The notes below the pieces were generated by a model, which saw only the letters and a program-made list of their open reading frames with translations, did no database searches and was not told the DNA's origin. Made by a program: the position numbers and the translations under genes. From assembly GCA_964016885.1 (NCBI GenBank), contig OZ024743.1, positions 27,032,001 to 27,096,000 on the forward strand: a stretch of 64,000 nt of DNA. The letters are read 5' to 3'. Shown piece by piece: positions 13,665 through 64,000 of this stretch. The stretch comes from Eledone cirrhosa (taxonomy: Eukaryota). Numbering within the stretch: the stretch's first letter is position 1; each line of letters starts with the position of its first letter.

Positions 13665-14858
13665 TGTTTCTTTATTAGCCACAGGGGCACAAAAGAGAGG
13701 GACAAATACAAAGGGGGAAGTTTACATACAATAAAAACGTGTAAAATGTTATCGCAAATGCAATTTAAAAAGTTAGTCGATTTTCCCCAATAGGGGGAGA
13801 CAGTGTATATGGGTAACACATACCCCCGAAAAAAATGTGCAACCCTCATCTCCAGGAGTACGAAGAGTTTGTACTCCTTTCCTCTCCTCCTCCTTTTCCT
13901 CAACCTACAGGCTGATATAGAGAGAAGGCTCATTCACTCGGGCCATTCTCGCCACTTTCATCCACCTTTCATAAAACTTGCTGGGGTACAGCACCTCTCT
14001 CTCCATCCTGATTCTTCTTCCAAAGTGGTATTTGAAAAAAAGAATCAGTTGTTGGCCGGAGAGAAAGGTGTCTGACCTCAGCCCTTTCAACCTTGTCCAC
14101 CATACAACCTCTTTCGCCATAGCTATCACACAAAGGAAAACCACCTCTCCTTCGTTTTTGAAGGAGGGTGGCGGTTTGATCATGACAATGGACTCGGTGG
14201 TCAACCGGATTGGTCCCACCCATGACAATAGTCGTTCTACATAGCCCCACAGGTCAGTGACGCCCGGGCAGTGTATGAATGCGTGCGCGACGGTTTCTTC
14301 GTCTCGCACGCACCTCCGACAGATCTTTTTTGCAGGGTCCCTGCCCGGGCGTCCATGTCTGTAGAGCTTGTCTCGAACTGGTAGAGCTCCTCGGTAGCGC
14401 TGCCAGGCCAGGGACTTTTGGAAGTTGTCCATCGGTCCCGGGCGGAAGGTCCTACCGAACAGACTGGCCAGTTCATCTTCCTCTACGCCTAGAGTTTCAC
14501 CGAGCGCGTCGTCGCACTTGCTGCGGATCAACCCTCTATAGAATGACTTCACTGATCGCCGGGTCCACCTGCCAGAGGGCTGTGAGCGCCTGAGCACATT
14601 CGATGTGCCAGTCGCCCATTTTCCTCGGTCTTTGCTTGACCCAGGACTGCAGCTCGGTCAGCGAGACGAGTCGTGGGAAGGCTCGCCTCACGAACGGGGC
14701 CCACACCGGTTGTCCGGTGAGGAATATGTAGAGATGCCGCAGCCTGAGCGCATGTTTGCGCATCGTCAACCACGGCATCCCCAGCCCTCCGTTAGAAGGA
14801 TGTTGGGAGCAGATGGATCTTCTCACCAAAGGAGCCCGCCTCTTCCAAAGGAATTGGA
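13665..14858 (-). mobile_element. L1/Tx1-clade LINE, 5'-truncated, inserted in (GATA)n
   Basis: GGLGMP motif and zf-RVT-like W..YRGALPVRDKL..CRRC..EETVAHAFIHCP; AATAAA near 3' end; agatagatag on both flanks (13652-13661, 14859-14868). Confidence 0.85.
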
Positions 14859-17366
14859 AGATAGATAGTTAGATAGAGAGATATGTAGATAGAGAGATAG
14901 GTAGGTAGATAGATAGGCAGGTAAATAAATAGATGTTGCTTTTATTGTCTGAAGATAGATATGTAACTAGAGATAGTAGCTGGGGGTAGGGAGGAAGATT
15001 TAAAATTGCCATTTCTGAAACAAATCTAACACAAAAGTTGTTGCCACAGGACATATGAGTTTTATCACAAAGATACTTGCATAAGCCCTGATATAATAAT
15101 AATACATCTCACTGTGAAAGTAAACAAAGTGTTTATACAAAAGTTTTTTTTATCTCATTAAGGGTAGAAAAAGTGGAATCTGTTTCACTAGTTTCTTGTC
15201 TTGGACCTTTATTAGAGAAACATATTTTATGAGAGACTTATATTTTATAGATATTTATTAGTTTGATATGGCTAAACTAGCCCATTTAATTTACATAACA
15301 GTATATGCCCTGAACATAGTTGATAATTAATAATGCACTTGAAAATCTAGGAAGAATAGAAACTAGTCTGATTAATCCCACTTGATCCAAAATAGGAAAG
15401 GAATGTCATATCTCTACATGTCATAAAAGGTTAGCATTAAAATGAGAATTTGGTTGTAAAACACCACCTCAAAAGTCCCATCTAACATATACAAACATAG
15501 AAAAGGGGATGTAAAAATAATAATGATGTGAATGATGAATGCATATCCCTCAGTGTGTGTATTAAAACACATCCATTTTCAAATATCGTAGCATATTCTG
15601 ACTTGTTACAAAAACTTGTGGAACACCTGCAGATCATATGTAGTACACATTATACCACAGTGCTTAGCTTAACTTAGTTTCTACCATGATGCTGCAGTAG
15701 AGTGGTTGAAAATGTTTGTTTTAGGGCAAGGTTAAGGAAAGGAAAGAATGCATATATAAGAAGTGATTTGAAATCAGAACGTACAGAGCCTGAACAAAAT
15801 GCCACTAAGTATCTAACAATCCTGCCAACCCATCTCACTGGATTGGTATCTTTTTTATTGGTTCCAAAATGATGAAAGGCATAGTTGATCTTGGCAGGAT
15901 TTGAACTTAGACTGCAAAGAACCAGAACAAATACTGATACATTTAATCCAACTTTACAACAATTCAAGCCATGTTAAATATATATTATAGGCAGTCAAGT
16001 GGCAGATTCATTAGGCAGTCATTAAAATCCTTTGTAGTGTTAGTCCAAACTCTCTGTGCTCTGAGTTCAAATTCTACTGTAGCCAACTTTGTCTTTTATC
16101 CTTTGGGATTGATAAATAAAGTACCAACCCAGGGGAAGTAAATTGGTGGAATTGTAAAAGCACCAGATGGGTGTTCTGAATTTAAATCCCACCTCCTGTC
16201 AGGGGAAAATCAGTGATGTATCTGCCAGAAGTTGCAAGCAACAGATAGTATTAGAAATGGAAAGACTAGTTTTCTTGGTCTGATCTAGAAAATCAGCTAC
16301 TTTTCTTTTTTTCTTTCCTTAAATATATATTGATAATATAGAATTAATAACAACTGATTGTTTGATAGCTGACTTATTTTAAATCGAGCCTGGTCGTATG
16401 ATTCAACACAGAAATATGTCACACTGTCCCAAAAGATTTGATATTGATTGGTGAAATTCTTGTTTAAAAGGTTTCTTCTATGTAAACAAAGTAGAATGGA
16501 GATTGGCAAACATCTTGGAAGAAATGAATAGGCTGAATATGAAGAAATATTACTGTTTTTAGAGACAAACCTTGAAGGATTACTGCAATAAAACAGACTT
16601 TTCTGTTGTTGTTGTAAACAAAAAAAATATTCTTCTGAATCGATCTGTATGTTGTTCATGGCTTTAGAAACCAGTAAACTGTGTGATTTAATAAGAGAAA
16701 CTACCAAAGATTTCATAAAATGTTAGTAATTCAGGCTTCTAACCAATAAATAATAATAAAAAAAAAACGAAATTAGAAAGTCAATTCACTCGATATGTCA
16801 TTAAAACTACTGAAATAAAAAAAAGAATTGAATTTTGCATAAACATAATTGCTGGTGAAAATACCTCCTTTCAATTGTTACTCCTCCTTTTTCTTCTTCT
16901 TTTTTTGTCGTCTTCATCTCCTCCTCCTCCTTCTTCTTTTCCTTCTGCTGTTGCTGCTATTGCTGATATTTTTGTTGCTGTTGCTACTGTTACTGTCAAC
17001 ATCACCATGACTATTATCACTAATATTGCTACTTTGCAATCGTCAGGTTCTGGGTACGATCCTACTGCATGGCATCTTGGGTAAATGTCATTTAAGCATC
17101 TCCCCATGTATTGAGTACTCCCATGATTAGTGGCCTAGTCGGTCTCAGCACTGCAGACTCTCTCTCTCTCTATATATATATAGCTCTCACTCTCCCTCTC
17201 TCTCTTTCTCTCTTTATATATATATCACTCTCATTCTCCCCCCTCTCTCTCTCTATATATGTGTGTGTCTCAAGAGGGGGAAGAGAAAGGGAACAATGTA
17301 GAGAATGATATGTATACAGAAAGGCACACTCTTAATACATGCATGGGTAACTGAATAGATATGCAT

Positions 17367-28772: not shown

Positions 28773-31700
28773 TGGTGAGGAGGGTGACTTTGGACATCCT
28801 GCAGGACTAAAAACAAAACCTGTCAAAGGGCAAAGGAGCTCTTAAGAGTCAATGGCCATCCAAAATCACCGGGAGAGATGACCCCTTAGCCTTTGTCAAG
28901 GCAGAATTCTAGGAGAAGGAAAACTCTGATATAACACCTGCAACTCTGATGGTATCCAATGATGTTGACTTGTTCTTCTTTTTGGTAAATATCATCTTGG
29001 TTAAGAGAGTGGGACTGGCTTTGTGCAGTGCCTTTGCTCACTATAAAAGCTTCACGGCACAGGTATTGCTTTATATCTGAAGATCTCTCTGCACTTGTCA
29101 TTTTGATGTGGAACTTTGGCTGGCCGTAGCCTAAAAAGGCAAACTACATTACAATGAAGGTACCTAACACAATTGAAGTAAATGGCAATAAGGGATCTGG
29201 ATCAGCATCATGTGAAAGGGTCTGGCCCGGCAGGTGTCCCAGGGCTCCGCAGTCTGGGCCCGGTCGTCATCGGTCTACTGTGTGCAAACCACTCAATTTT
29301 GGGTGCTGGAATGTGCGTACTTTGCTTGATGTTGAAACAGATGTGCAGCGACCTGAAAGAAGATCGGCTTTGGTTGCCAAGGAGCTCAGGCGTTATGATA
29401 TGGATGTTGTGGCCCTCTCGGAAACTCGATTTCATGGTGAGGGCCATTTCACAGAGAAATCCGGTGGTTTTTCTGGAGGGGAAGGAAGGAGGGAAGGAGG
29501 GAAGCTGGTGTCGCTTTTGCCATAAAACAGTTATAACAGACCATCTTCAGGAGCTGCCGACAGGCGTTAGTGACAGACTGATCACTGTGAGAGTTCCTCT
29601 AGAGGGTGGAAGATATGCAACCGTGATTGGTGCTTATGCACCAACTATGGAATGTATTGATGAAGCAAAGCAGGCTTTTTATGACGAATTAAGGTCTCTT
29701 GTCTGGAAAGTGCCTGCAGCAGACAACATTTTCATTCTTGGAGATTTTAATGCTCGCGTGGGCCGTGATTGTGCGACCTGGAGAGATCTGGGCAAGCATG
29801 GTGTCGGAAAGTGCAATGGCAATGGATTCTTGTTATTGCAAATGTGCACTGAGCTGGACTTGTTCATTGGCAGCACTATGTTCCAACAGAAGGACAAATA
29901 CAAGACAATATGGATGCATCCTGGATCGAAATAGTGGCACCTGATTGATTATGTCCTTGCGAGGCGGCGGGATGTACAGGATCTGTGCAGTGTTCGTGTG
30001 ATGTGTGGGGCAGAGTGTTGGACCGACCATCGTCTGGTGAGAGCAGGAGCAAGATGTGTAGTTCGTAAAAGGGAGAAACGGCGAGGGGTATCACTTCCGA
30101 AACGGCTGAATGTTGCCCATCTGAAGGATCCTGAAGCCAGAGAAAATCTGGTTTAAAAAATGGATGCGTTAGAGTGCGGAAATGACTGGACTTCCTTTAA
30201 GGAGGCAGTTTATGGAGCATGTGCTGATGTTGTTGGATTCACAGATAAGAAGCATCAGGATTGGTTTAACCAAAATGACAAGCTTATGGAGGAGAAACAT
30301 ATGCTCCACTCCGCATTGCTTGGTAGTGATGTAAGCACCGATCGGCAGAAGGCAATCGCTGATAAGCTGAAGCTCGTAAAAGCTGATGTGCAACGAAAAT
30401 TGCGTGAAATGAAGAATAAGTGGTGGAATGACAAAGCCGATGAAATACAACTTGCGTCGGATGTGAAGGACGTTAAGGCAATGTATAATCTTCTTCGTGA
30501 ATTGTATGGACCACCTATATCACCAGTTGCGCCTCTTAGGACAAAGGATGTCAATCAGCTCCTTAGAAATCCCAATGATATCCTGTTGAGATGGCGGGAC
30601 CACTTTGACGAGCTTCTCAATAGGGATTCAGAGGTTGACGAAGAGTTTATCAAGTCCATACCTGATAAGCCAGTAAAGGAAATCCTTGCTGAGCCTCCAA
30701 CGATCGAGGAGGTTAAAAATGCTGTCTAGAAACTCAATGGTGGGACGTCGCCTGGATTGGATGGGCTGTATGCTGAGATCTTGAAGCACGGTGGAGAGAA
30801 TCTCTTGCACCGACTTCATTCTTTGGTTCTGGATGCCTGGAACAACAATCATGTTCCCGATTACTGGAAGGATGCTGTGATGGTTGTTTTGTACAAGAGG
30901 AAGGGATACAGGGATGACTGCGGAAACTATCGTGGGATATCACTGTTGTCTGTTGTCGGCAAAGTTCTCTGTAGAATTCTGTTGGACCGTTTATTGCTCC
31001 ATATTGCTGATGAAGCTCTACCAGAGTCGCAATCGGGCTTTCGGGCTGGGCGTGGCACTGTGGACATGATCTTTACAGCCAGACAACTGCAGGAAAAGTG
31101 TGTTGAGCAGAATGTGGATCTCTACCAGGTGTTTGTTGATCTTACAAAGGCGTTTGACACGGTCAACAGAAAGGCTTTATGGGATATCTTGAGGAAGCTG
31201 GGGTTCCCTGAGAAGTTTGTTTCCATTTTGCGTTTGTCCCATGATGACATGAAGGCATAGGTAAATGTTGGTGGAAAGCTCTCTGAGCCGGTGACGGTCG
31301 AGAATGGAGTCAAACAGGGTGACATTCCAGCTCCAACGCTCTTTGCTTTGTACTTCTCCATTGTCTTCGAACAGGCCTTCGGGAACTGCAATCATGGTAT
31401 ATATGTTCGCTATCGATCAACTGGAAAGCTGTTTAATATCAGGAGGTTCAATGCTAAGTCAAATGTTCATTTGTCACTAATCAGGGATTTGCTTTATGCA
31501 GATGACTGTGACCTGGTAGCGCACACTAAGATTGATATGCAGCATCTCATGGATGCATTTTCTAATGCGTGTACTGCATTGAGACTTACCATAAGCCTGA
31601 AAAAGTCAGTAGCCATGTGCCAACCAGCCCCTGGGAAGCCATGTTGTGAGCCCAACATCTTGGTTTATGGTGAAAGGCTAAAGGTCGTTGGCAGTTTTGT

Positions 31701-32798
31701 TAATCTTGGAAGCACTCTGATTCTGTCCTGCGATCTTGATGGGGAAATATCAAACAGGATACAGAAAGCCAGTGATGCTTTTGGAAAACTGAACAAGCGT
31801 CTCTGGTCTCAACACGGAATTTCGGTAAAGACAAAGCTCATAGTGTATCATGCGTGAGTGCTCGCGGCACTTCTTTATGCTTGTGAGACGTGGGTGGTCT
31901 ACCGTAGACAGATGAAGCGACTTGAGAGGTTCCACCAGTACTGCTTACGACGGATCCTCGGCATAACTTGGCAAATGTTTGTCAGTGACGTCGAGGTTCT
32001 GGACAGAAGTGGCTGTGATAGTGTCGAGTCCTTGATTTTGAAACATCAGCTGCGCTGTACAGGCCATCTTGTAGGGATGAATGACAAGCGAATGCCGAAG
32101 CCACTGCTTTAGGGCGAGCTCCAAATGGGAAAAAGGAACGCAAGTAAACCCAAGATGCGTTTTAAGGACTGCATCAAGAGGGCGCTCAAGAAAAGTAACA
32201 TCCCTTGTGAGCACTGGGAAGCATGCGCTAGCGACCGATCGCATTGGAGGAAAGCAGTGGCTAGTGGCAAGAGTCTATTTGAGGAAACAAGAAGAAGGCA
32301 CGCGACACTAAAAATAGATGTCCGGAAAGGAATCCATGTTGGCTTTCCCGAAGGCACTGACAGACGGCCTGACCTGACATGTGAGACCTGTAATAGGGTT
32401 TGTCTGAGCATGGCAGGTCTAAAGAGTCATCTGAGAGTGCACAAGAACAGGGAAGCAGGCACCTGTGGAGCTATAAGTGTTCATCAGACGACGACATGTG
32501 ATGTTTGTGGAAGGGTATGCAGGTCGAGTAGTGATCTCACACGACACCTTGGGTCACATGGTGCCATGGGCCCAGCACTAGGTGTCAATAATTGTCACAA
32601 GTGTAGTGTTTGTACCAGAGTTTTCAAGTCGCTGGCTGGACTAAAAAGCCACACTCGTTCAGCGGATCGGTAGGGGTTCTCCTACATGGATATAAAGTAG
32701 TGGCCGTACTCGAAAACGAGTTGGCAGCCACCATGTATGTATGTATGTATGTATGTATGTATGTATGTATGTATGTATGTATGTATGTATGTATGTAT
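28773..32798 (+). mobile_element. Near full-length RTE (BovB-like) LINE with (TATG)n tail
   Basis: 5' UTR with tctaggagaaggaaaactctg; APE and RT coding region; (TATG)n tail 32733-32798. Confidence 0.93.
29154..32673 (+). pseudogene. RTE ORF (APE endonuclease - RT - three C2H2 fingers), disrupted
   Basis: WNVRTL, ALSETR, GDFNARVG, IDYVL; NYRGISLL, QSGFR, FVDLTKAFD, GVKQG, LLYADD; in-frame stops (e.g. 29932, 30727, 31258, 31855, 32110) and a frameshift near 29470. Confidence 0.92.
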
Positions 32799-33040
32799 GG
32801 AGGGTGACTTTGGGCATCCTGCAGGACTAAAAAACAAAACCTGTCAAAGGGCAAACAGCTCTTAAGAGTCAATGGCCATCCAGAATCACCGGGAGAGATG
32901 ACCCCTTAGCCTTTGTCAAGGCAGAATTCTAGGAGAAGGAAAACTCTGATATAACACCTGCAACCCTGATGGTATCCAATGATGTTGACTTGTTCTTCTT
33001 TTTGGTAAATATCATCTTGGTTAAGAGAGTGGGACTGGCT
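32799..33040 (+). mobile_element. Second copy of the RTE 5' UTR directly after the tail of the first element
   Basis: Near-identical to 28779-29020; runs into microsatellite. Confidence 0.9.
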
Positions 33041-33901
33041 ATGTATATGTATATGTGTGTATGTGTATGTATATGTATATATGTGTATGTGTATGTATAT
33101 ATGTGTATGTGTATATGTATGTATATGTATATGTATATATGTATGTATATATATATGTATGTGTATGTATATGTATATATGTGTATATGTGTGTATATGT
33201 ATATATATATGTGTATGTGTGTATGTATGTATATATGTATGTATATATGTATATATGTGTGTATATGTGTGTATATGTATATATGTGTATATATGTGTGT
33301 GTGTATGTGTGTATGTGTATATATGTATATGTATATATATGTATGTGTATATGTATGTATATGTGTGTATATATATGTGTATATGTATATATATGTATGT
33401 GTGTATGTATATATATATGTGTGTATATGTGTATATATGTATATATGTATATATGTGTATATATATGTATATGTATATGTATATGTATGTGTATGTATGT
33501 GTATATATGTATGTATATATGTATGTATATGTGTATGTATGTGTATATATGTATGTATGTATGTATATATATATGTGTGTATATATGTGTGTATATGTAT
33601 GTATGTATATGTATATATGTATATGTGTATACGTATATATGTATATATATGTGTATATATGTGTATATATGTGTATGTATGTGTATATATATATATGTAT
33701 ATGTATGTATATGTATATGTATATATGTGTATATGTGTGTATGTGTGTATGTATATGTATATGTATGTATGTGTATATGTGTATATATGTGTATATATAT
33801 GTATGTATATGTATATATATATGTATATGTATATATGTGTATATGTATGTATGTATGTATATGTATGTATGTGTGTATGTATATATGTATATATATGTAT
33901 G
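33041..33901. repeat. ~860-bp compound (TATG/TA/TG)n microsatellite
   Basis: Direct reading; source of the spurious long Y/I/H/M ORFs. Confidence 0.95.
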
Positions 33902-37997: not shown

Positions 37998-38245
37998 ATG
38001 CTGCTACAGCTACTGCTGCTGCTGCTACTGCTGCTATTGCTGTTGTTACTACTACTACTACTACTACTACTACAATTACTACTGTTACTGCTGCTGTTGC
38101 TACCACCACCACCACTACAACTACCACGGCTGCTGCTACTGCTACTACTACTACTACTACTACTGCTGCTGCTACTATTACTACTGCTGCCACCACCACC
38201 ACCACCACCACCACCACTACTACTACTACTACTATTACTACTACC

Positions 38246-38335
<90 letters not shown>

Positions 38336-38630
38336 GCTGCTGCTACTGCTACTACTACTACTGCTGCCACCACCACCACCACCACCACTACTACTACTAC
38401 TACTATTACCACCACCACTACTACTACTACTATTACTACTACTACTACTGCTGCTGCCGCTGCTACTACTACTATTACTACTGCTGCCACCACCACCACC
38501 ACCACCACAACCACTACTACTACTACTACTACTACTACTGCTACTGCTGCTGCTGCTACTGCTACTACTACTATTACTACTGCTGCCACCACCACCACCA
38601 CCACCACCAGCAGCAGCAGCACCACTACTA

Positions 38631-38662
<32 letters not shown>

Positions 38663-38725
38663 ACTATTACTACTGCTGCCACCACCACCACCACTACCAC
38701 CACCACCACCACCAGCAGCAGCACC

Positions 38726-38756
<31 letters not shown>

Positions 38757-38757: not shown

Positions 38758-39457
38758 TAAATGGTGCATCTTTGACCTTATCATCGAATGTACTCTTCTT
38801 CCCTTTTAAGATGTTAGTGTGTTATTTGAAGAAAATCTGGCTGTTATTTTCCAGCCCGCCGAGTGGAAATATAGAGTTATCCTCATTGATCGGATCTTTC
38901 TTGTGAAATAGTAAACCGGTGAAATTATAAAAAAACCCATTAAACTAAACCATAACTTTAAGCCATATTAACTTGCTAAACCATCAATTTGAGAAGTCAT
39001 AATTAGCGGTACAGGGTGCAAAGGTGTTTTGATGTTTAAGACGACTGAAAACTATATACAGGGATGAGACAGAAATCAATATTTAGGGATTTTACTTAAA
39101 TTGCTGGAACTACATTAAAAAAAAAAAGGTGTCGAATTGGCAGAGTCGTTAGAGCAAAAGATTAGATGCTTTGGGGGTATATATTCCGATCCTTTGTGTC
39201 ATGAGTAAAATTTCCACCAAGGTAAAAAAAAAACAAAAAAAAACACTCATATAGTTTATTGTTAGAGCCTCGGGCCAGATGCTTTGTGGTATTTGTTCCC
39301 GCTCTCTGGTGTTCTGAGTTTAAATTCCGTAGCCTGTTCAACTTGCACTTGACCTTTGAGGCCTGAAATCATCGTCCTACAATAGTTCGAACACTACTGG
39401 GTGAAAACATATCTGAAAAAGAAGCTGTATTATAAATAAACAACGATTTTGGGTGTA

Positions 39458-39511
<54 letters not shown>

Positions 39512-39733
39512 AATTAAGTTAAAAATGTACATCTACATATGCATACTGAAATACTAGTATGCATATGAATACACACACGTATACATATGTAGATGTAACA
39601 AGTCTTTCACTGGTTACTTTACTGTGAGTAACCCAGCTATTCTGTATGTAAACACAGAGACAAACCGGTTTTTAGAGTCATACTGGTTTTCGAGGAAACA
39701 CCTTTCCTCTATTCTCCAGAAAGCCAGACAAGG

Positions 39734-39778
39734 AATATTGAACTAGTTTCGTTGTTGTTACAACTCATCAGCAATATT
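39734..39778 (-). ncRNA. Minimal type-I hammerhead ribozyme (mirror copy)
   Basis: Exact reverse complement of 40084-40128. Confidence 0.8.
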
Positions 39779-40083
39779 TACCTATCTACCGGCCTTTCTG
39801 GAGAATCGTAAAAGCACATATCGTTATATGCTTTTTCTATGAAAATTAGTAGTGGGCAGACTAATTTGCATAGAGTGTGAGTACGCACCGGTTCAGCGGA
39901 GACGATAAAAACAAATAACGAAACGAAATTTAATTTCGTTTCGTTATTTGTTTTTATCGTCTCCGTTGAACCGGTACGTACTCACGCTCTATGCAAATTA
40001 GTCTGCCCACTACTAATTTTCATAGAAAAAGCATATAACGATATGTGCTTTTACGATTCTCCAGAAAGGCCGGTAGATAGGTA

Positions 40084-40128
40084 AATATTGCTGATGAGTT
40101 GTAACAACAACGAAACTAGTTCAATATT
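40084..40128 (+). ncRNA. Minimal type-I hammerhead ribozyme
   Basis: aatattg-CTGATGA-gttgt(aaca)acaac-GAA-ACTAGT-T-caatatt: 7-bp stem I, 5-bp stem II, palindromic stem III, GUU site. Confidence 0.82.
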
Positions 40129-40417
40129 CCTTGTCTGGCTTTCTGGAGAATAGAGGAAAGGTGTTTCCTCGAAAACCAGTATGACTCTAAAAACCGGTTT
40201 GTCTGTGTGTTTACATACAGAATAGCTGGGTTACTCACAGTAAAGTAACCAGTGAAAGACTTGTTACATCTACATATGTATACGTGTGTGTATTCATATG
40301 CATACTAGTATTTCAGTATGCATATGTAGATGTACATTTTTAACTTAATTGTTTAAGCGTCAGTCATACAAAAGTGAGTTACAAACGAAACGAAATTTAA
40401 TTTCGTTTCGTTATTTG

Positions 40418-40487
<70 letters not shown>

Positions 40488-40508
40488 ATAAAAACACCAT
40501 GTTATTTA

Positions 40509-40570
40509 TTCATTCTGATGACTGAAGACAGATATAAATATCTGCCTTCAAGAAACCACTGGTAAATGAA
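40509..40570 (+). ncRNA. Type-I hammerhead ribozyme in a ~120-bp TA-flanked insert (40486-40608)
   Basis: ttcatt-CTGATGA-c tgaag a cagatat(aa)atatctg c cttca a-GAA-ACCA c TGGT-A-aatgaa; closing pair of stem II mismatched. Confidence 0.72.
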
Positions 40571-40603
40571 ATAATTATCTTATGTTGTTTATTACATAAC
40601 TAA

Positions 40604-40641
<38 letters not shown>

Positions 40642-40697
40642 TAATTATAATGAAATGACAGGAGGCTGGATTTGTGTAAATCCTTGAAAGGTTTATT

Positions 40698-40755
40698 ATA
40701 CTATGATCATTTCAATGACCGGGTTCCGTATGAATCCGGTGATATCATCAGGTAT
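40698..40755 (-). ncRNA. Type-I hammerhead ribozyme
   Basis: Minus strand atac-CTGATGA-tatc accggattc(atacg)gaacccggt catt-GAA-ATGATCAT-A-gtat; palindromic stem III, AUA site. Confidence 0.72.
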
Positions 40756-41128
40756 TCGAAATATAATACGTGAATGTAATAGGTAAAATCCATGGGGCTG
40801 AAAATCGAGACCCGAGGGCGACCGCTATTCTGTTCCTTCAACCTCAGCCGGTCGCCCTGGAGTGACGTGGCTAAATTTTATAGTATGCTACTACCGGTCA
40901 GATGAACGAAAACAGAAAGAGATGGGAGCATAGGTTAACGTCGATCCCATGACACAAGGTAAAAGAAAGAAAGAAAGGAAGGAGAAGAAGGGGGAAGAAA
41001 GAAGAAGAAGAGAAGTCAGGGTTAATGTCAGCTAAAAGAGGAAGGTAACTACTACTGGTCAGATATAGGCAAGCAAGAGGGGGAAGGAATATAAGTCTGC
41101 AGGGAGGAGAGGAGAGAAGGAAGGGAAG

Positions 41129-42148
41129 AGAGAAGTAGAAAAGTAAGGGTTGATGGCTACAAGAAGGAAGATAGAAAGGAAGAGGAAGAAAGGTCGATAT
41201 TAATGTCAGACCACAGTCAAGCCAGGAGTGACGCGAGAGAATTTTCACAGGGACCCGCATCTTAGCGGAGATGGATATATTGGGAGTCAGTGTTTTACAG
41301 TGTTTAGACTTCTAGGATGAAGTTAAAAAAATTTAATAATCAATATTCAATATTAAAGAGGTTAGAAAATTTAAAGTTCAACAGTTTAACAATTAATTAT
41401 ATAATAGTTCCGATTTGTTCTGTAATTTAAAGGTACTATTTGGCGGTTAAAACAACGGCCGCGCCCCGGGCCCCATGGCGAATTAAGCCACGCCGAGTAT
41501 TTTCATTTACTGAAAGAAGGGGAAATTTATTTTTCCAAGCACTCTAGGTGAGCTCGTTCGCCACGGAGCTGGTCGCGCCGCCATTAAAACCCACCCAACA
41601 GTCCGACAGAAAGTTGGAACTTTAAAATTTAGCTTAGAGAAGTAAAAGAGTAATGGTTGATAGCTACAAGAAGGAAGATAGAAAGAGAGAGGAAGGAAGG
41701 TCGATATTAATGTCACACCACAGTCGGGCCAGGAGTGGCGCGACAAAATTTTCACAGGGACTCGCATCTTAGCAGAGGTGAATATAATGGGGGTCAGTGT
41801 GTTACAATGTTTAGACTTATAGGATGAAGTTAAAAAATTAATAAATTAATAATCAATATTCCATATTAAAGAGGTTAGAAAACTTAAAGCTCAACAGTTT
41901 CAGGTTGATATATATAATAGTTCCGATTTGTTCTGTAATTTAAAGGTACTATTTGGCGGTTAAAACACCGGCCGCGCCCCAGGCCCCATGGCTAATTAAG
42001 CCACGCCGAGTATTTTCATTTACTGAAAGAAGGGGAATTTATTTTTCCAAGCACTCCAGGTGAGCCCGTTCGCCAGGGAGCTGGTCGCGCCGCCGCTAAA
42101 ACCCACCCAACGGTCCGACAGAAAGTTGGAACTTTAGAATTTTGCTTA
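41129..42148. repeat. ~507-bp tandem duplication
   Basis: Units 41129-41635 and 41636-42148; also 12-bp ttcagaataaca x4 (~42174-42221) and a 70-bp dimer (~42458-42597). Confidence 0.88.
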
Positions 42149-43414
42149 ACTCTATCGGATGAAGTTGAAAGAATTCAGAATAACATTCAGAATAACATTC
42201 AGAATAACATTCAGAATAACATTATGAAACTAAGGAGTAAGAGGATTGAGAATTGAACAAACAGAAAATTGAAGATTAGACATTCAAATAACTTCTATGA
42301 GGTTTTGGGTTGCGGGGTTTAATTAAATAGTCTTTTATGAAGAAACGTTAATTGTATTATGTAGATTTGTAATTTATCCTAGTGGGATGTAGAGTACGGG
42401 ATATAGTCGTGTAATGTTTAATTTTTGTTCTCAGGAGGAGACATTCTAGTGTCGTGTGCTAATGGGTACAGGTCCCAATGTGAGGAGTAGAAATACATGG
42501 ATACATAGAAGTGGAATACGTGGAAGAGCTAATGGGTACAGGTCCCAATGTGAGGGGTAGAAATACATGGATACATAGAAGTGGAATACGTGGAAGAGCA
42601 CATTGGTACAGCAGAGGTATAAATATATAAACATATCAATATATAGGTATAAACATGTAAATAAACCAACAAGAGTGGTGTTGGAGTAAGATGGAGAAAT
42701 CAGGACATTAATACAGCAAACAAAGATGTGAAGATATAGATAAACAAACAATAGTCGTTGTCTAGTAAATGTAGAGTTCAAGAGACAGGAGAAATACAAT
42801 ATAGTTCGGGTTGCGGTATTTATGTTCCCAGGGGGAAATATTCCAGTGACGTGTGCTGAGGGTACACGCGAGTAAAAGTCCGAATAAGGGAAGTAGAAAG
42901 TACATGGATAAGGATTTACACAAATCCAGCCTCCTGTCATTTCATTATAATATTTAACTCCGTAATAGCACCACCAACTACAAAAACAAAGACGGTTGAA
43001 CTGCTTTACGTTGAGTACTCTCTATATTATTGCATTACGATTGACCATACGGAATAGACCAGCTCTATACAGTGGTGAACCTCAAACCTGAATAAATATA
43101 TATACATATATATATATAAAACAACCAATCAAGGTACCCGCCTCTCACTCGTATGTTTTGTTCAAAACTGGTTAGAAGTGCCGCATCAGGTAAAGATGAT
43201 ACATATTTATGTCGATCACAAGTAAATACATTCTTTCTCCCAGGGGAATATTACTTTTTGAGTTTGTTTTTGTTTTTAGTTATACAAATATAAACATTCC
43301 TTTTCGCATATTTTGACCTTCTGAGATTTCCTCTGATTTTTTGGTTGGATTTAAAGTATCAAGTTTTTCTTTGGTAAAAGACATTCTTAGCTGTCGTAGT
43401 TGGTAGCATTTGTT

Positions 43415-61298: not shown

Positions 61299-61303
<5 letters not shown>
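60623..61303 (+). mobile_element. pogo/Tigger-like internally deleted DNA transposon
   Basis: TIR cgagtccgcttaagagtat (60627-60645) / rc 61281-61299; subterminal agtccg..taagagtat repeats; C-terminal QKSILDYF PIP-box-like motif. Confidence 0.8.
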
Positions 61304-61360
<57 letters not shown>

Positions 61361-61556
61361 TTGGGGAGGGTCATATTTGTGTAATATTGCCAGAATTAAT
61401 AACAGAACACACTCACTGTTTGGTTGGTTTTCGCTTCTCGCTTCTGTGTCTTTTATATCGGTAATCTAACTTACTCGGTCCTCAATGTTGCCATTGACTG
61501 ACCGACGGTCAAAAATAATACAGATACAATATAGACACAAACACATATATATAGTT

Positions 61557-61600
61557 TATCATAAATCTTTCGTTGCACATCTGCAACATCGTCAGTGGTG
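61557..61600 (-). ncRNA. Minimal hammerhead ribozyme in the PLE pLTR
   Basis: Minus strand cca-CTGACGA-t-gttgca(gatg)tgcaac-GAA-AGATTT-A-tga; same strand as the EN ORF; stem I weak. Confidence 0.7.
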
Positions 61601-61839
61601 TTATATTTTCCTCTTGTTGTATTGTATGTCTACGCCATTTTTATTCAGTCTGTCTATATATTTATTTATTTATTTGCTTGTTTGTTTATTTTATTTTGTC
61701 TTCTTTGCGCATGCGTTTGCGTGTGTGTATAGTGTTTTGTTTGCTGTGTGATGGGCGACTAGTGTGTGTTTATGTGCTTGTTGTTATTGTGCTTGTGTAT
61801 GTATTTATTTATTTATTTTATTTTATTTTATTTACTTAT

Positions 61840-62226
61840 TTATACTTCTCTTAGGTCAGTGTTGTTTGTTTGGGTGTTGTTATTCCATTCATTATTTCTG
61901 TTTAGCCTTGGTCTTCTAATTTCTATTTCACTGGCCTCTCTGATTTGCCTACCTGCTGGGTCATTTCTATGTTTAGATATTATTCTAATTTCTATGTTGT
62001 CTATGTTACCGTCAGGTTGTTGTCTAGCATGTTCGTATAGTACTGACCCGTTTTTTCGTCCTTTTAGTTCCCCCCAGTGTTGGTCTATCCTTTCACCTAT
62101 GCTACGAGCTGTCTCACCTATGTATGTTGTTGTCATGTTTCTGCAAGTACCCTCCGTACATCTTATGCTATAGACTACGTTTCTAGTTTTACAGTTTATC
62201 CGGGGGTTCACCTTACATATGATACA
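61840..62226 (-). CDS. GIY-YIG endonuclease domain of the PLE (inverted, 5'-truncated copy)
   Basis: CIIC..NC..RNVVYSIRC..C..YIGETARS..ER..QH..SVLYEH..RQIREASEI..P.LN. Confidence 0.85.
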   Translation of the reverse strand, partial: CIICKVNPRINCKTRNVVYSIRCTEGTCRNMTTTYIGETARSIGERIDQHWGELKGRKNGSVLYEHARQQPDGNIDNIEIRIISKHRNDPAGRQIREASEIEIRRPRLNRNNEWNNNTQTNNTDLREV

Positions 62227-64000
62227 CGGATAAGTCTGGTAGGATGTCAATAGATAGCATGCCGAACTACATCGAGGATATGCAACCCCACATCACCAAC
62301 ACGAGCGAAATTGCACAACAAACACACGATGGGAGAGAGAAAATCCTCAATGCTCACATGATGATATGGACTGACATCCTAAAGCCAAGCAGACGCACTG
62401 CCAACAACTTCCAGGCGTCTAACAATGGCATACCACCCTTGTATGGGCTCCGCAAAGACCACAAGACAGTCGACGACCCGACAACATGACCACCAACAAG
62501 ACCCGTATGCGGAGCTAATATAGCTAGCAACTACAGGATCTCCTACTTCCTCTCAATGGTTATACGCCCCATAATCAAGATGTCCCCAGATGTATGTGAC
62601 AGTACAGAGGACCTCCTCAGCAGAATCAGTGAGTGCAACAAAAACAGGAGCCTATCCAACTGCATAATAGGCAGCATGGATGTGGTGTCACTGTACCCAT
62701 CCATTAACATTGATTTTGCTGTGAAAAGATGTGTGGAGATGATCATTGAGAGTGAGGTGGAGTTCTGTGCGACGTCGATACAGACGAACTGGGCCTCCTA
62801 CTTAGACTTACCTACGACACTGACTACCTAGACAGCCATGACCTTAGATGTTTCTGCCCTAGTAGACCTATAAGAGGTAGACCCCCCACCATAACCTCAA
62901 TAGCAAAAAAGACTCCCATGGGAAGGTGGATTGGGTGGACCAAAGCTATACGGACCCCCCAAAACAATGATCAGGTAAAAAAATGGTCGCACATGCAATA
63001 GGGGCTAGTATCAAAACTACCCTAAAGGGCCACATATTTAAGTTCAACGAGAAGATCTACACCCAAAATGAGGGAGCAGCCATCAGCGTCAACATAGCTG
63101 GTGATGTTGCCAACCATTTCATGGTATGGTGGGAAAGGAGACTTAAAGATCTCCTTAATGAGAGCTCCATAGACCTCATCATGTACTCTCGTTATGTAGA
63201 CGATATCAATATAGTTATAAGAACACCCCCACTAGAGAGCACTAACAAGTTTGATTTAGAACGTGGAAAGCATCCAGCAAATAGCTAATTCCATACACCA
63301 GAGTATAACTGTAACTATCGGCTTCTCTTCCAAACACCCTAACAATAGACTACCTGTATTAGACACAGAACTCTGGATTAACACTATAGACGAGAGAGCC
63401 CAAATTCTCCACTCACACTATGCTAAACCCATGGCCTCCAAATACCTGATACTCAAAAACTCAGCAATGTCCAGTAGTGCTAAGTTTAATATTCTGATCG
63501 CAGATTTGGTACGAGTGATGAAGAATGTGTCCCGCATGTGCGACCCAACAGAAATGGAAAGACACATCCAACACTTCATCAATCGCATGCAGTTCTCTGG
63601 CTACAACCAAAGAGACAGAGTCAGAGTATACGAAGGAGCCATGGAAAAGTATAAGACCCTCATAGAACTGGACATGAAAGGAATTTGCCCATTATACAGG
63701 AGCAAATCATGGAATAGCTTAGATAGGGCTAGACATAAGATAGGGAAAGCCACCTCATGGTACGACAACCAGAGATACCAGAGTGTCATGTTTGTGGACG
63801 CTACCCCTGGAAGGAAATTAGCTAACCAGTGTAGAATGGCCCTGAGAAAGACCCACTTAAAAATAAAGGTGGTAGAAAAGCCAAGAACCACCATAAAATC
63901 CCTGATCAGCAAAACCTACCCTTTTAAGAAAACCCACTGTACCAATAGGAAATGTATCATATGTAAGGTGAACCCCCGGATAAACTGTAAAACTAGAAAC
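62227..64000 (+). pseudogene. PLE reverse transcriptase, 5'-truncated, disrupted, running off the window
   Basis: TDKSG, LYGLRKDHK, RPVC, SMDVVSLYPSI, YTQNEG, RYVDD, LPVLD, HYAKPM, then Cys linker CTNRKCIIC; stop at 62487 and frameshifts. Confidence 0.9.

Follow-up and report, generated by a model that had tools for sequence, protein, structure and literature searches.

Three probable Penelope-type inserts with hammerhead motifs in one TA repeat of the Eledone cirrhosa genome

Four hammerhead ribozyme (HHR) motifs lie close together around a TA microsatellite in the window, as we call the whole 64,000-nucleotide (64-kb) stretch of Eledone cirrhosa DNA analysed here. How did they come to be there, and do they cut anything at this site? 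The earlier note on this DNA proposed that one TA tract had been hit repeatedly by different ribozyme-bearing retroelements, and that the outcome was a site cutting transcripts on both strands. Our analysis agrees with the former and speaks against the latter. One TA tract, extending from 39460 to about 43118, carries three inserts (E1, E2 and E3), each with a hammerhead. Three ribozyme types occur in the three inserts, which show no mutual similarity in blastn comparisons, and every insert end is found on the (TA)n microsatellite, with no discernible target-site duplication. The (TA)n stretches that were said to part the inserts are all present. The locus probably holds the traces of three Penelope-type elements in one TA repeat and is largely ordinary, mostly known biology. 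The motifs do fall within about 1 kb, as had been described; the third insert appears to reach further, to about 43092. Along the window the features are as follows.

39460..39508: (TA)n, left end of the original target tract (TRF, 24.5 copies, 100%)
39507..39945, minus strand: E1 inverted copy, from the junction hairpin to (TA)n at the position matching 40355, without the final 66 nt (the tail)
39734..39778, minus strand: HHR1, identical to HHR2; GUU triplet; predicted cut 39741/39740
39917..39945: native 29-nt hairpin, in both arms, palindrome centre at 39931; recurs at 40384-40412
39917..40421, plus strand: E1 direct copy, the 467-nt unit and a 38-nt repeat of its start; ORF-less, strongly folded
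40084..40128, plus strand: HHR2, canonical type I; GUU triplet; predicted cut after 40121; HH9 match, E 1.2e-7
40356..40421, plus strand: tail, 66 nt, in the direct copy only; the left arm ends at the equivalent of 40355
40422..40484: (TA)n between E1 and E3
40485..40603, plus strand: E3, a 119-nt insert with (TA)n on both sides
40509..40570, plus strand: HHR3; GUA triplet; predicted cut after 40564; found with the relaxed descriptor
40604..40640: (TA)n between E3 and E2
40641..42909, minus strand: E2 main segment, HHR4 near its 3' end; no recognisable ORF
40698..40755, minus strand: HHR4; AUA triplet; predicted cut at 40701/2; found with the relaxed descriptor
42910..43092, plus strand: E2 inverted short copy, a 42-nt terminal segment and about 140 nt; ends on (TA)n
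43093..43118: (TA)n, interrupted, beyond E2

The common CUGAUGA...GAAA core and stems I-III were confirmed for all four motifs. A relaxed type I descriptor, which allows up to two mismatches in stem II, has exactly four matches in the 64-kb window, namely HHR1 to HHR4, and the strict type I descriptor has two, HHR1 and HHR2. Such a density is not reached in shuffled sequence: 100 block-wise dinucleotide shuffles of the window gave 0.03 relaxed matches per window (three of the shuffles had one), and there was no relaxed match in any of 2000 shuffles of 39501-40800. At the gathering score Rfam has no match in the whole window. Below it, HHR1 and HHR2 each match Hammerhead_HH9 (RF02275, clan CL00010) with 38.6 bits (E 1.2e-7), the gathering score being 52; the alignment covers the full model (1-77 of 77), but helix III is 5 nt shorter. 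HHR3 and HHR4 have no Rfam match up to E 10. Matches to sRNA and miRNA families were rejected as by-products of hairpins. Hammerhead cores with a perfect stem II number three in the window (HHR1, HHR2 and one at 61595), against 0.18 per window in shuffles. All three lie 236-331 nt from one of the 17 TA arrays of at least 16 nt, although three cores are too few to carry an association. The E1 hammerhead pattern had no match in metagenome contigs or in viral contigs, and the HHR3 pattern none in viral contigs. The single match of the HHR4 pattern (L001), which has neither the stems nor similarity to the window, was set aside as a chance match.

What identifies E1 is a palindrome, a permuted 467-nt unit and a tail, which had escaped the earlier note. 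The palindrome comprises 849 bp (39507-40355), and its arms, 39507-39930 and 39932-40355, are 424 nt each, stand 1 nt apart and are 99% complementary, with four differences. HHR1 and HHR2 lie in these inverted arms and are identical in sequence, so the description of the motifs as having unrelated stems is valid between the three inserts and fails for this pair. The direct copy runs through 39917-40383, then through its own first 38-41 nt again and into (TA)n, which amounts to 1.08 turns of the unit; the start of the unit holds the 29-nt hairpin on which the palindrome is centred. The inverted copy meets the left (TA)n 66 nt before the point that corresponds to the end of the direct one. The marks of a Penelope-like element (PLE) insertion are accordingly present in E1: an inverted, 5'-truncated copy placed head-to-head with a direct copy, and a tail on one end. 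After the tail comes the unit's own start, without an ORF, and no ORF of at least 90 aa overlaps E1. The G+C content is 0.34 over 39001-41000. The unit folds at -164.6 kcal/mol against -99.0 +/- 5.5 kcal/mol for dinucleotide shuffles (z -11.9), none of 100 being as stable.

HHR2 has the G10.1-C11.1 pair, a palindromic stem III of 1-2 bp and a GUU triplet. The 2-bp stem III of HHR1 needs a partner, because a 2-nt loop cannot form in the monomer, and the short palindromic stem III of HHR1 and HHR2 is of the dimer type. Self-complementary stem III segments, to which attention had been drawn before, are found in all three ribozyme types, with self-duplex energies of -8.2, -10.2 and -9.2 kcal/mol (plain energies, with no shuffle control). 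E1 fits a PLE-signature insertion of a non-autonomous, ORF-less hammerhead repeat of the non-LTR retrozyme type. Like animal non-LTR retrozymes, it is a tandem unit without an ORF, has a single type I hammerhead, is low in G+C and highly self-paired, and lies in a genome where PLEs co-exist (Cervera and de la Pena, 2020, PMC7229834; 10.64898/2026.07.22.740005). As in the axolotl HHR_Amex1, a single-pair helix III is capped by a palindromic tetraloop (PMC7229834). Unlike the retrozymes described in the portions covered, it makes 1.08 turns, has a head-to-head inverted copy and a one-sided tail, and lies in (TA)n; insertion sites and inverted copies are not described in those portions of PMC7229834 and 10.64898/2026.07.22.740005.

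Sequencing runs extend the picture for E1; the comparison covered 39946-40421, and the read support concerns this stretch. Among the matches listed there are 24 runs, 20 of which hold the E1 stretch or part of it (16 studies; three with at least half of the words), and no RNA run among those listed holds it. Four runs were compared: X1 and X24 from organism A, X5 from organism B and X6 from organism C. Organism A has E1 in 1120 contigs (X1) and in 3398 of 12.5 million reads (X24); elsewhere it is found in 34 contigs of X5, 11 of them at 99% or more, and in 11 contigs of X6. Since so many X1 contigs and X24 reads fall on the unit, with many shared variants, E1 is presumably multicopy. The copies in X5 and X6 are near-identical to E1 (for example, 155 nt with one difference and 221 nt with four differences and one gap, respectively), and this near-identity may reflect close relatives, recent activity or transfer.

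The tandem form of the unit is seen in head-to-tail joints that lead from 40412 to 39946, 467 positions back. X24 has 63 such reads with 15 starts, one of them with 73 letters on the shorter side, and X6 has one contig spanning 40233-40412 and 32 letters more; X1 and X5 have none, so the joint is present in two of the four runs compared. Tandem support consists of these joints, an array of two full units being absent from the four runs. Against the tandem form, reads that start in the 38-nt repeat yield the same 467-back joint. Some of the X24 joints may also be ligation products: the reads of this restriction library end on AATT, and the hairpin has two AATT sites. Loose ends of X24 reads at 39999, 40015, 40347 and 40397-8 were rejected as AATT library cuts. 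Five X1 contigs have (TA)n behind 40355, where the left arm ends, although X1 may be the window's own source and the contigs need not represent a second locus.

Variants among the E1 copies respect the fold. Only five of 27 variant rows break a pair, against 11.7 expected (P 0.0012); these are 27 of about 70 rows, 40 being shown, 13 clustered A>G rows excluded from them and 30 not shown. Two pairs covary, 40099/40110 in hammerhead stem II and 40232/40247. At the former pair X24 has T>A in 410 of 579 reads (40099) and A>T in 403 of 553 (40110), counted per site and not per read, and the changes recur in X1 and X5 contigs. Another variant, at 40121, turns the triplet into GUC (186 of 526 X24 reads). 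The whole E1 unit is under selection for its fold.

E3 and E2 are less complete. HHR3 has a long stem II, C.A at 10.1-11.1 and a 3-bp stem III with a 3-nt loop, and its catalytic fold (-12.1 kcal/mol) nearly equals the best fold (-12.2 kcal/mol). E3 has no second copy within the window and probably represents the 3' end of a further PLE or retrozyme family, truncated on its 5' side. HHR4, with U.U at 10.1-11.1, C.C in stem II and a 4-bp stem I, is probably decayed: its catalytic fold of -3.0 kcal/mol is separated by 11 kcal/mol from the best one (-13.9 kcal/mol). In E2, which reads on the minus strand, it stands about 60 nt from the TA-joined end. The terminal 42 nt of E2 (40644-40685) recur inverted at 42910-42951, 42 of 42 identical, followed by about 140 nt; we read 40641-43092, on the evidence of this single locus, as one insert with a short inverted copy. 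E2 has internal repeats as well, a 507-bp duplication (90%) and repeats of 70 and 12 bp. The tandem duplication of 507 bp, at 41129-42148, includes part of a third unit and, near 41440-41500, a stem-loop region rich in G+C. We considered a second class of ribozyme in this repeat and dropped it (no Rfam match to E 10; fold z -0.6 and -3.2 against mononucleotide shuffles).

HHR3 and HHR4 resemble the minimal metazoan PLE hammerheads in that helix II is long, helix I short and helix III palindromic (PMC4209133). Published PLE hammerheads conserve G10.1-C11.1 (PMC4209133), which both motifs lack, although they have the core and three stems; HHR1 and HHR2 differ from the minimal type in being canonical. 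The missing pair, the missing Rfam matches and the fold z of -0.58 for HHR4 might suggest that HHR3 and HHR4 arose by mere chance in DNA rich in A and T, and one might likewise take the palindrome for an assembly artefact. Either is most improbable in our view. The regional shuffles mentioned above argue against chance, as does the position of HHR3 and HHR4, 40-60 nt from a 3' end joined to (TA)n. The arms of the palindrome differ at four sites and in length, and nine X24 reads with six starts cross the opposite-strand junction at the hairpin, subject to the caveat of the restriction library.

Enzymes of the kind required are attested by a broken PLE at 61360-64000, arranged head-to-head, which also ends on (TA)n (61301-61359). 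Its minus-strand copy has the endonuclease end and the 3' UTR on (TA)n, and its plus-strand copy has reverse transcriptase (RT) from 62223 past the window end. The motifs DKSG and YVDD, a CX4CxxC linker, YIGET and, at the C-terminus, a GIY-YIG-like domain were recognised. One fragment has 2081 homologous proteins at E <=0.001, and the alignment puts RT on the plus and the C-terminal endonuclease on the minus strand; in the protein atlas clusters for the PLE fragments GIY-YIG is found in 15-18% of members. Pfam has no match on these fragments, and a comparison of the GIY-YIG fragment with longer proteins gave none among 135 candidates. A C-terminal GIY-YIG domain together with a CX2-5CxxC linker marks the Neptune and Nematis clades (Craig et al., 2021, PMC8557442), and by these characters the remnant would be a PLE of Neptune/Nematis type, judged from its sequence. 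Its 3' UTR holds the hammerhead core at 61595 (minus strand), with G10.1-C11.1 and a good stem II and without clear stems I and III. E1, E2 and E3 share no DNA with this element, including its 3' UTR. Because of this, it shows that such enzymes acted in the genome, and not that its family moved E1. In the inserts themselves there is no ORF for RT and GIY-YIG, and tblastn with the local PLE frames was empty over 1-61200.

We therefore explain the locus by three RNA-templated PLE insertions in one TA microsatellite, E1 being a retrozyme-type repeat and the hammerheads here being passengers, and give this reading a probability of roughly 0.8. The tract would have been struck three times by a PLE reverse transcriptase with its GIY-YIG endonuclease, probably of the Neptune type. 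Tandem E1 copies elsewhere would be transcribed and, to judge from the literature, their hammerheads would cut as dimers, giving unit-length or circular RNA. The E1 template was probably uncut or circular, because the insert crosses the hammerhead intact. The PLE protein would nick both (TA)n strands and prime two cDNAs on an uncut multimeric or circular RNA. These would start at the two end points observed, the tail end at 40421 and, 66 nt upstream, 40355, presumably in that order. Both would pass the intact hammerhead and join at the self-complementary 29-nt hairpin; the outcome would be a head-to-head palindrome of which one arm bears the tail. E3 and E2 would be truncated 3' ends of two other families, E2 likewise with a direct and a short inverted copy. 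By dividing the TA tract, the insertions would leave fresh TA to their left and right and so keep the site a target.

Much of this is familiar from PLEs. In their insertions an inverted pseudo-LTR (pLTR) overlaps the direct one and is shorter, a tail is found on one side and a palindrome at the junction (Arkhipova et al., 2013, PMC3846280), and a preference for (TA)n, or a microsatellite bias, has been reported (Craig et al., 2021, PMC8557442). In vitro, PLE enzymes nick both strands, extend them and copy mainly RNA that has not been cut, and the two sites at which RT starts enclose the tail (Frangieh et al., 2024, PMC11167929). E1 is like endonuclease-bearing (EN+) PLE insertions in its overlapping inverted copy at a palindrome, its shorter 3' end, the one-sided tail, the microsatellite and the hammerhead in the repeat (PMC3846280, PMC8557442, PMC11167929); it is unlike them in having no ORF and in a 66-nt tail that continues into the same unit again. 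From metazoan PLEs, pairs of hammerheads on opposite strands, at distances of 100-700 bp, have been described (Cervera and de la Pena, 2014, PMC4209133), and 320 nt separate the cores here. Several points weigh against our explanation. The 467-nt unit and the 66-nt tail exceed the published typical 170-400 nt and 30-40 nt, although retrozyme families of 51-972 bp, a range that includes the E1 unit, are given in the preprint of Li, Clavereau and Pollet (2026, 10.64898/2026.07.22.740005). The mobilising partner has no sequence link, E1-E3 being unlike the local PLE 3' UTR, and E2 and E3 rest on one locus.

The palindrome might also have been made by a single cDNA that self-primed on the 29-nt hairpin and copied itself, instead of two cDNAs meeting. 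Such self-priming has been proposed for these junctions (PMC3846280), the palindrome centre falls exactly on the native hairpin, and minority alleles of the family, e.g., at 40074, 40264 and 40320, are common to both arms. Two of the four arm differences, 39966 and 39986, nevertheless coincide with variants that are common in the family (in X24, 467 of 1223 and 578 of 1030 reads). This match suggests two templates, although weakly, one of the differences being a CpG and the other two not being among the 40 rows shown. In addition, the inverted parts of E2 and of the PLE at 61.3-64 kb are not mirror copies, and fold-back cannot make these. We favour two cDNAs joining at the hairpin, and consider the single self-primed cDNA possible though the less probable of the two.

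It is unlikely that E1 belongs instead, as the pseudo-LTR, to an autonomous PLE that has an ORF and was truncated at this site. The layout is like that of published truncated PLE insertions (PMC3846280, PMC4209133), and retrozymes and pLTRs are related, non-LTR retrozymes being derived from PLE pseudo-LTRs according to the same preprint (10.64898/2026.07.22.740005). On the other side, the tail is followed by the start of the unit itself and E1 has no overlapping ORF, the hammerhead agrees with HH9 in its full canonical form and not with the minimal type of PLEs, and selection on the fold extends over the whole unit.

The claim of the earlier note that the cluster cuts transcripts on both strands is not upheld by folding predictions, and a functional or co-opted site cleaving host transcripts has, in our estimate, hardly any likelihood. 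There are two cores on each strand, the catalytic fold of HHR3 is practically as stable as the best one with stem I pairing at 0.26-0.63 in context, and an axolotl retrozyme with U.U at the base of helix II still cleaved, to 22% in 1 h (PMC7229834). As the axolotl retrozyme tolerates U.U, this mismatch alone does not exclude HHR4. Its stem I probability in context is 0.0, however. HHR1 and HHR2 are predicted to be unable to fold in read-through RNA, being locked in the 424-bp hairpin: in a transcript across E1 the two arms pair with one another, which brings each of the 14 hammerhead pairs down to a probability of 0.00, whereas in a single unit stems I and II have 0.66-0.99. On either strand the antisense arm would be transcribed first. 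Lying on opposite strands, HHR1 and HHR2 would not serve as mutual dimer partners, and none of the four motifs has a dimer partner on its own strand. Minimal PLE hammerheads gave no cleavage as monomers (PMC4209133), and eight of nine Xenopus dimers tested were uncleaved (10.64898/2026.07.22.740005). HHR3 would be the only plausible solo cutter, yet C.A replaces its G10.1-C11.1. Finally, no host gene was recognised in the 64-kb window. As passengers of the insertions, the hammerheads would have little or no cutting role at this locus.

The cluster follows published PLE behaviour, and its value is that of a test case for PLE-driven retrozyme mobility. PLE mobilisation of retrozymes has been argued from co-occurrence and phylogeny (PMC7229834, 10.64898/2026.07.22.740005). 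E1 shows the PLE insertion signature in a hammerhead unit that lacks an ORF and has a junction hairpin and two end points that can be mapped. These features make it possible to test which template was used (circle or multimer), where priming began and how head-to-head palindromes arise. Among the papers listed by a literature search, none reports inverted, tailed retrozyme insertions in TA repeats in its title or in the opening of its abstract. An octopus repeat annotation lists Penelope-like families, and the word "ribozyme" is absent from the portion covered (PMC13282606).

A further observation concerns the genomic DNA run X24, which on E1 has 26 A>G places against nine G>A, with clusters within 40147-40244 on the sense strand of the element. 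Eight of these places (40174-40193) are carried by 111-112 reads with one or two starts and three others (40242-40244) by 68 reads with two starts. Ten of 13 clustered sites are unpaired in the monomer fold, and 12 of 13 are preceded on the 5' side by A or T. Such a pattern is expected of ADAR acting on a perfect duplex. The X1 contigs have only one clustered A>G site, in one contig. The clusters may stem from one or two copies in the genome that derive from edited RNA, or from library errors that were amplified, and nothing in the literature search could be linked to A>G-clustered copies.

A bolder and rather doubtful view would make E1 a viroid-sized circular RNA, copied by double PLE priming at both nicked strands of a TA repeat on a circular or multimeric template, with the two cDNAs meeting at the native hairpin, the palindromes giving long dsRNA that is hyper-edited by ADAR and in part written back, in a family near-identical in at least three organisms. 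If true, it would provide direct insertion-signature evidence for PLE-driven retrozyme mobility, a hypothesis in the literature covered so far, and a route from RNA editing to heritable repeat variation.

Other repeats are found in the window. A frameshifted LINE at 29130-32673 has endonuclease-like, RT and C-terminal C2H2 zinc-finger pieces (Pfam RVT_1 and zf-C2H2), and a LINE fragment with a zf-RVT domain lies on the minus strand at 13905-14868. Two very long simple repeats, at 38047-38756 and 33040-33900, consist of 237 copies of a 3-nt unit and of an 860-nt TATG/TA mosaic, respectively.
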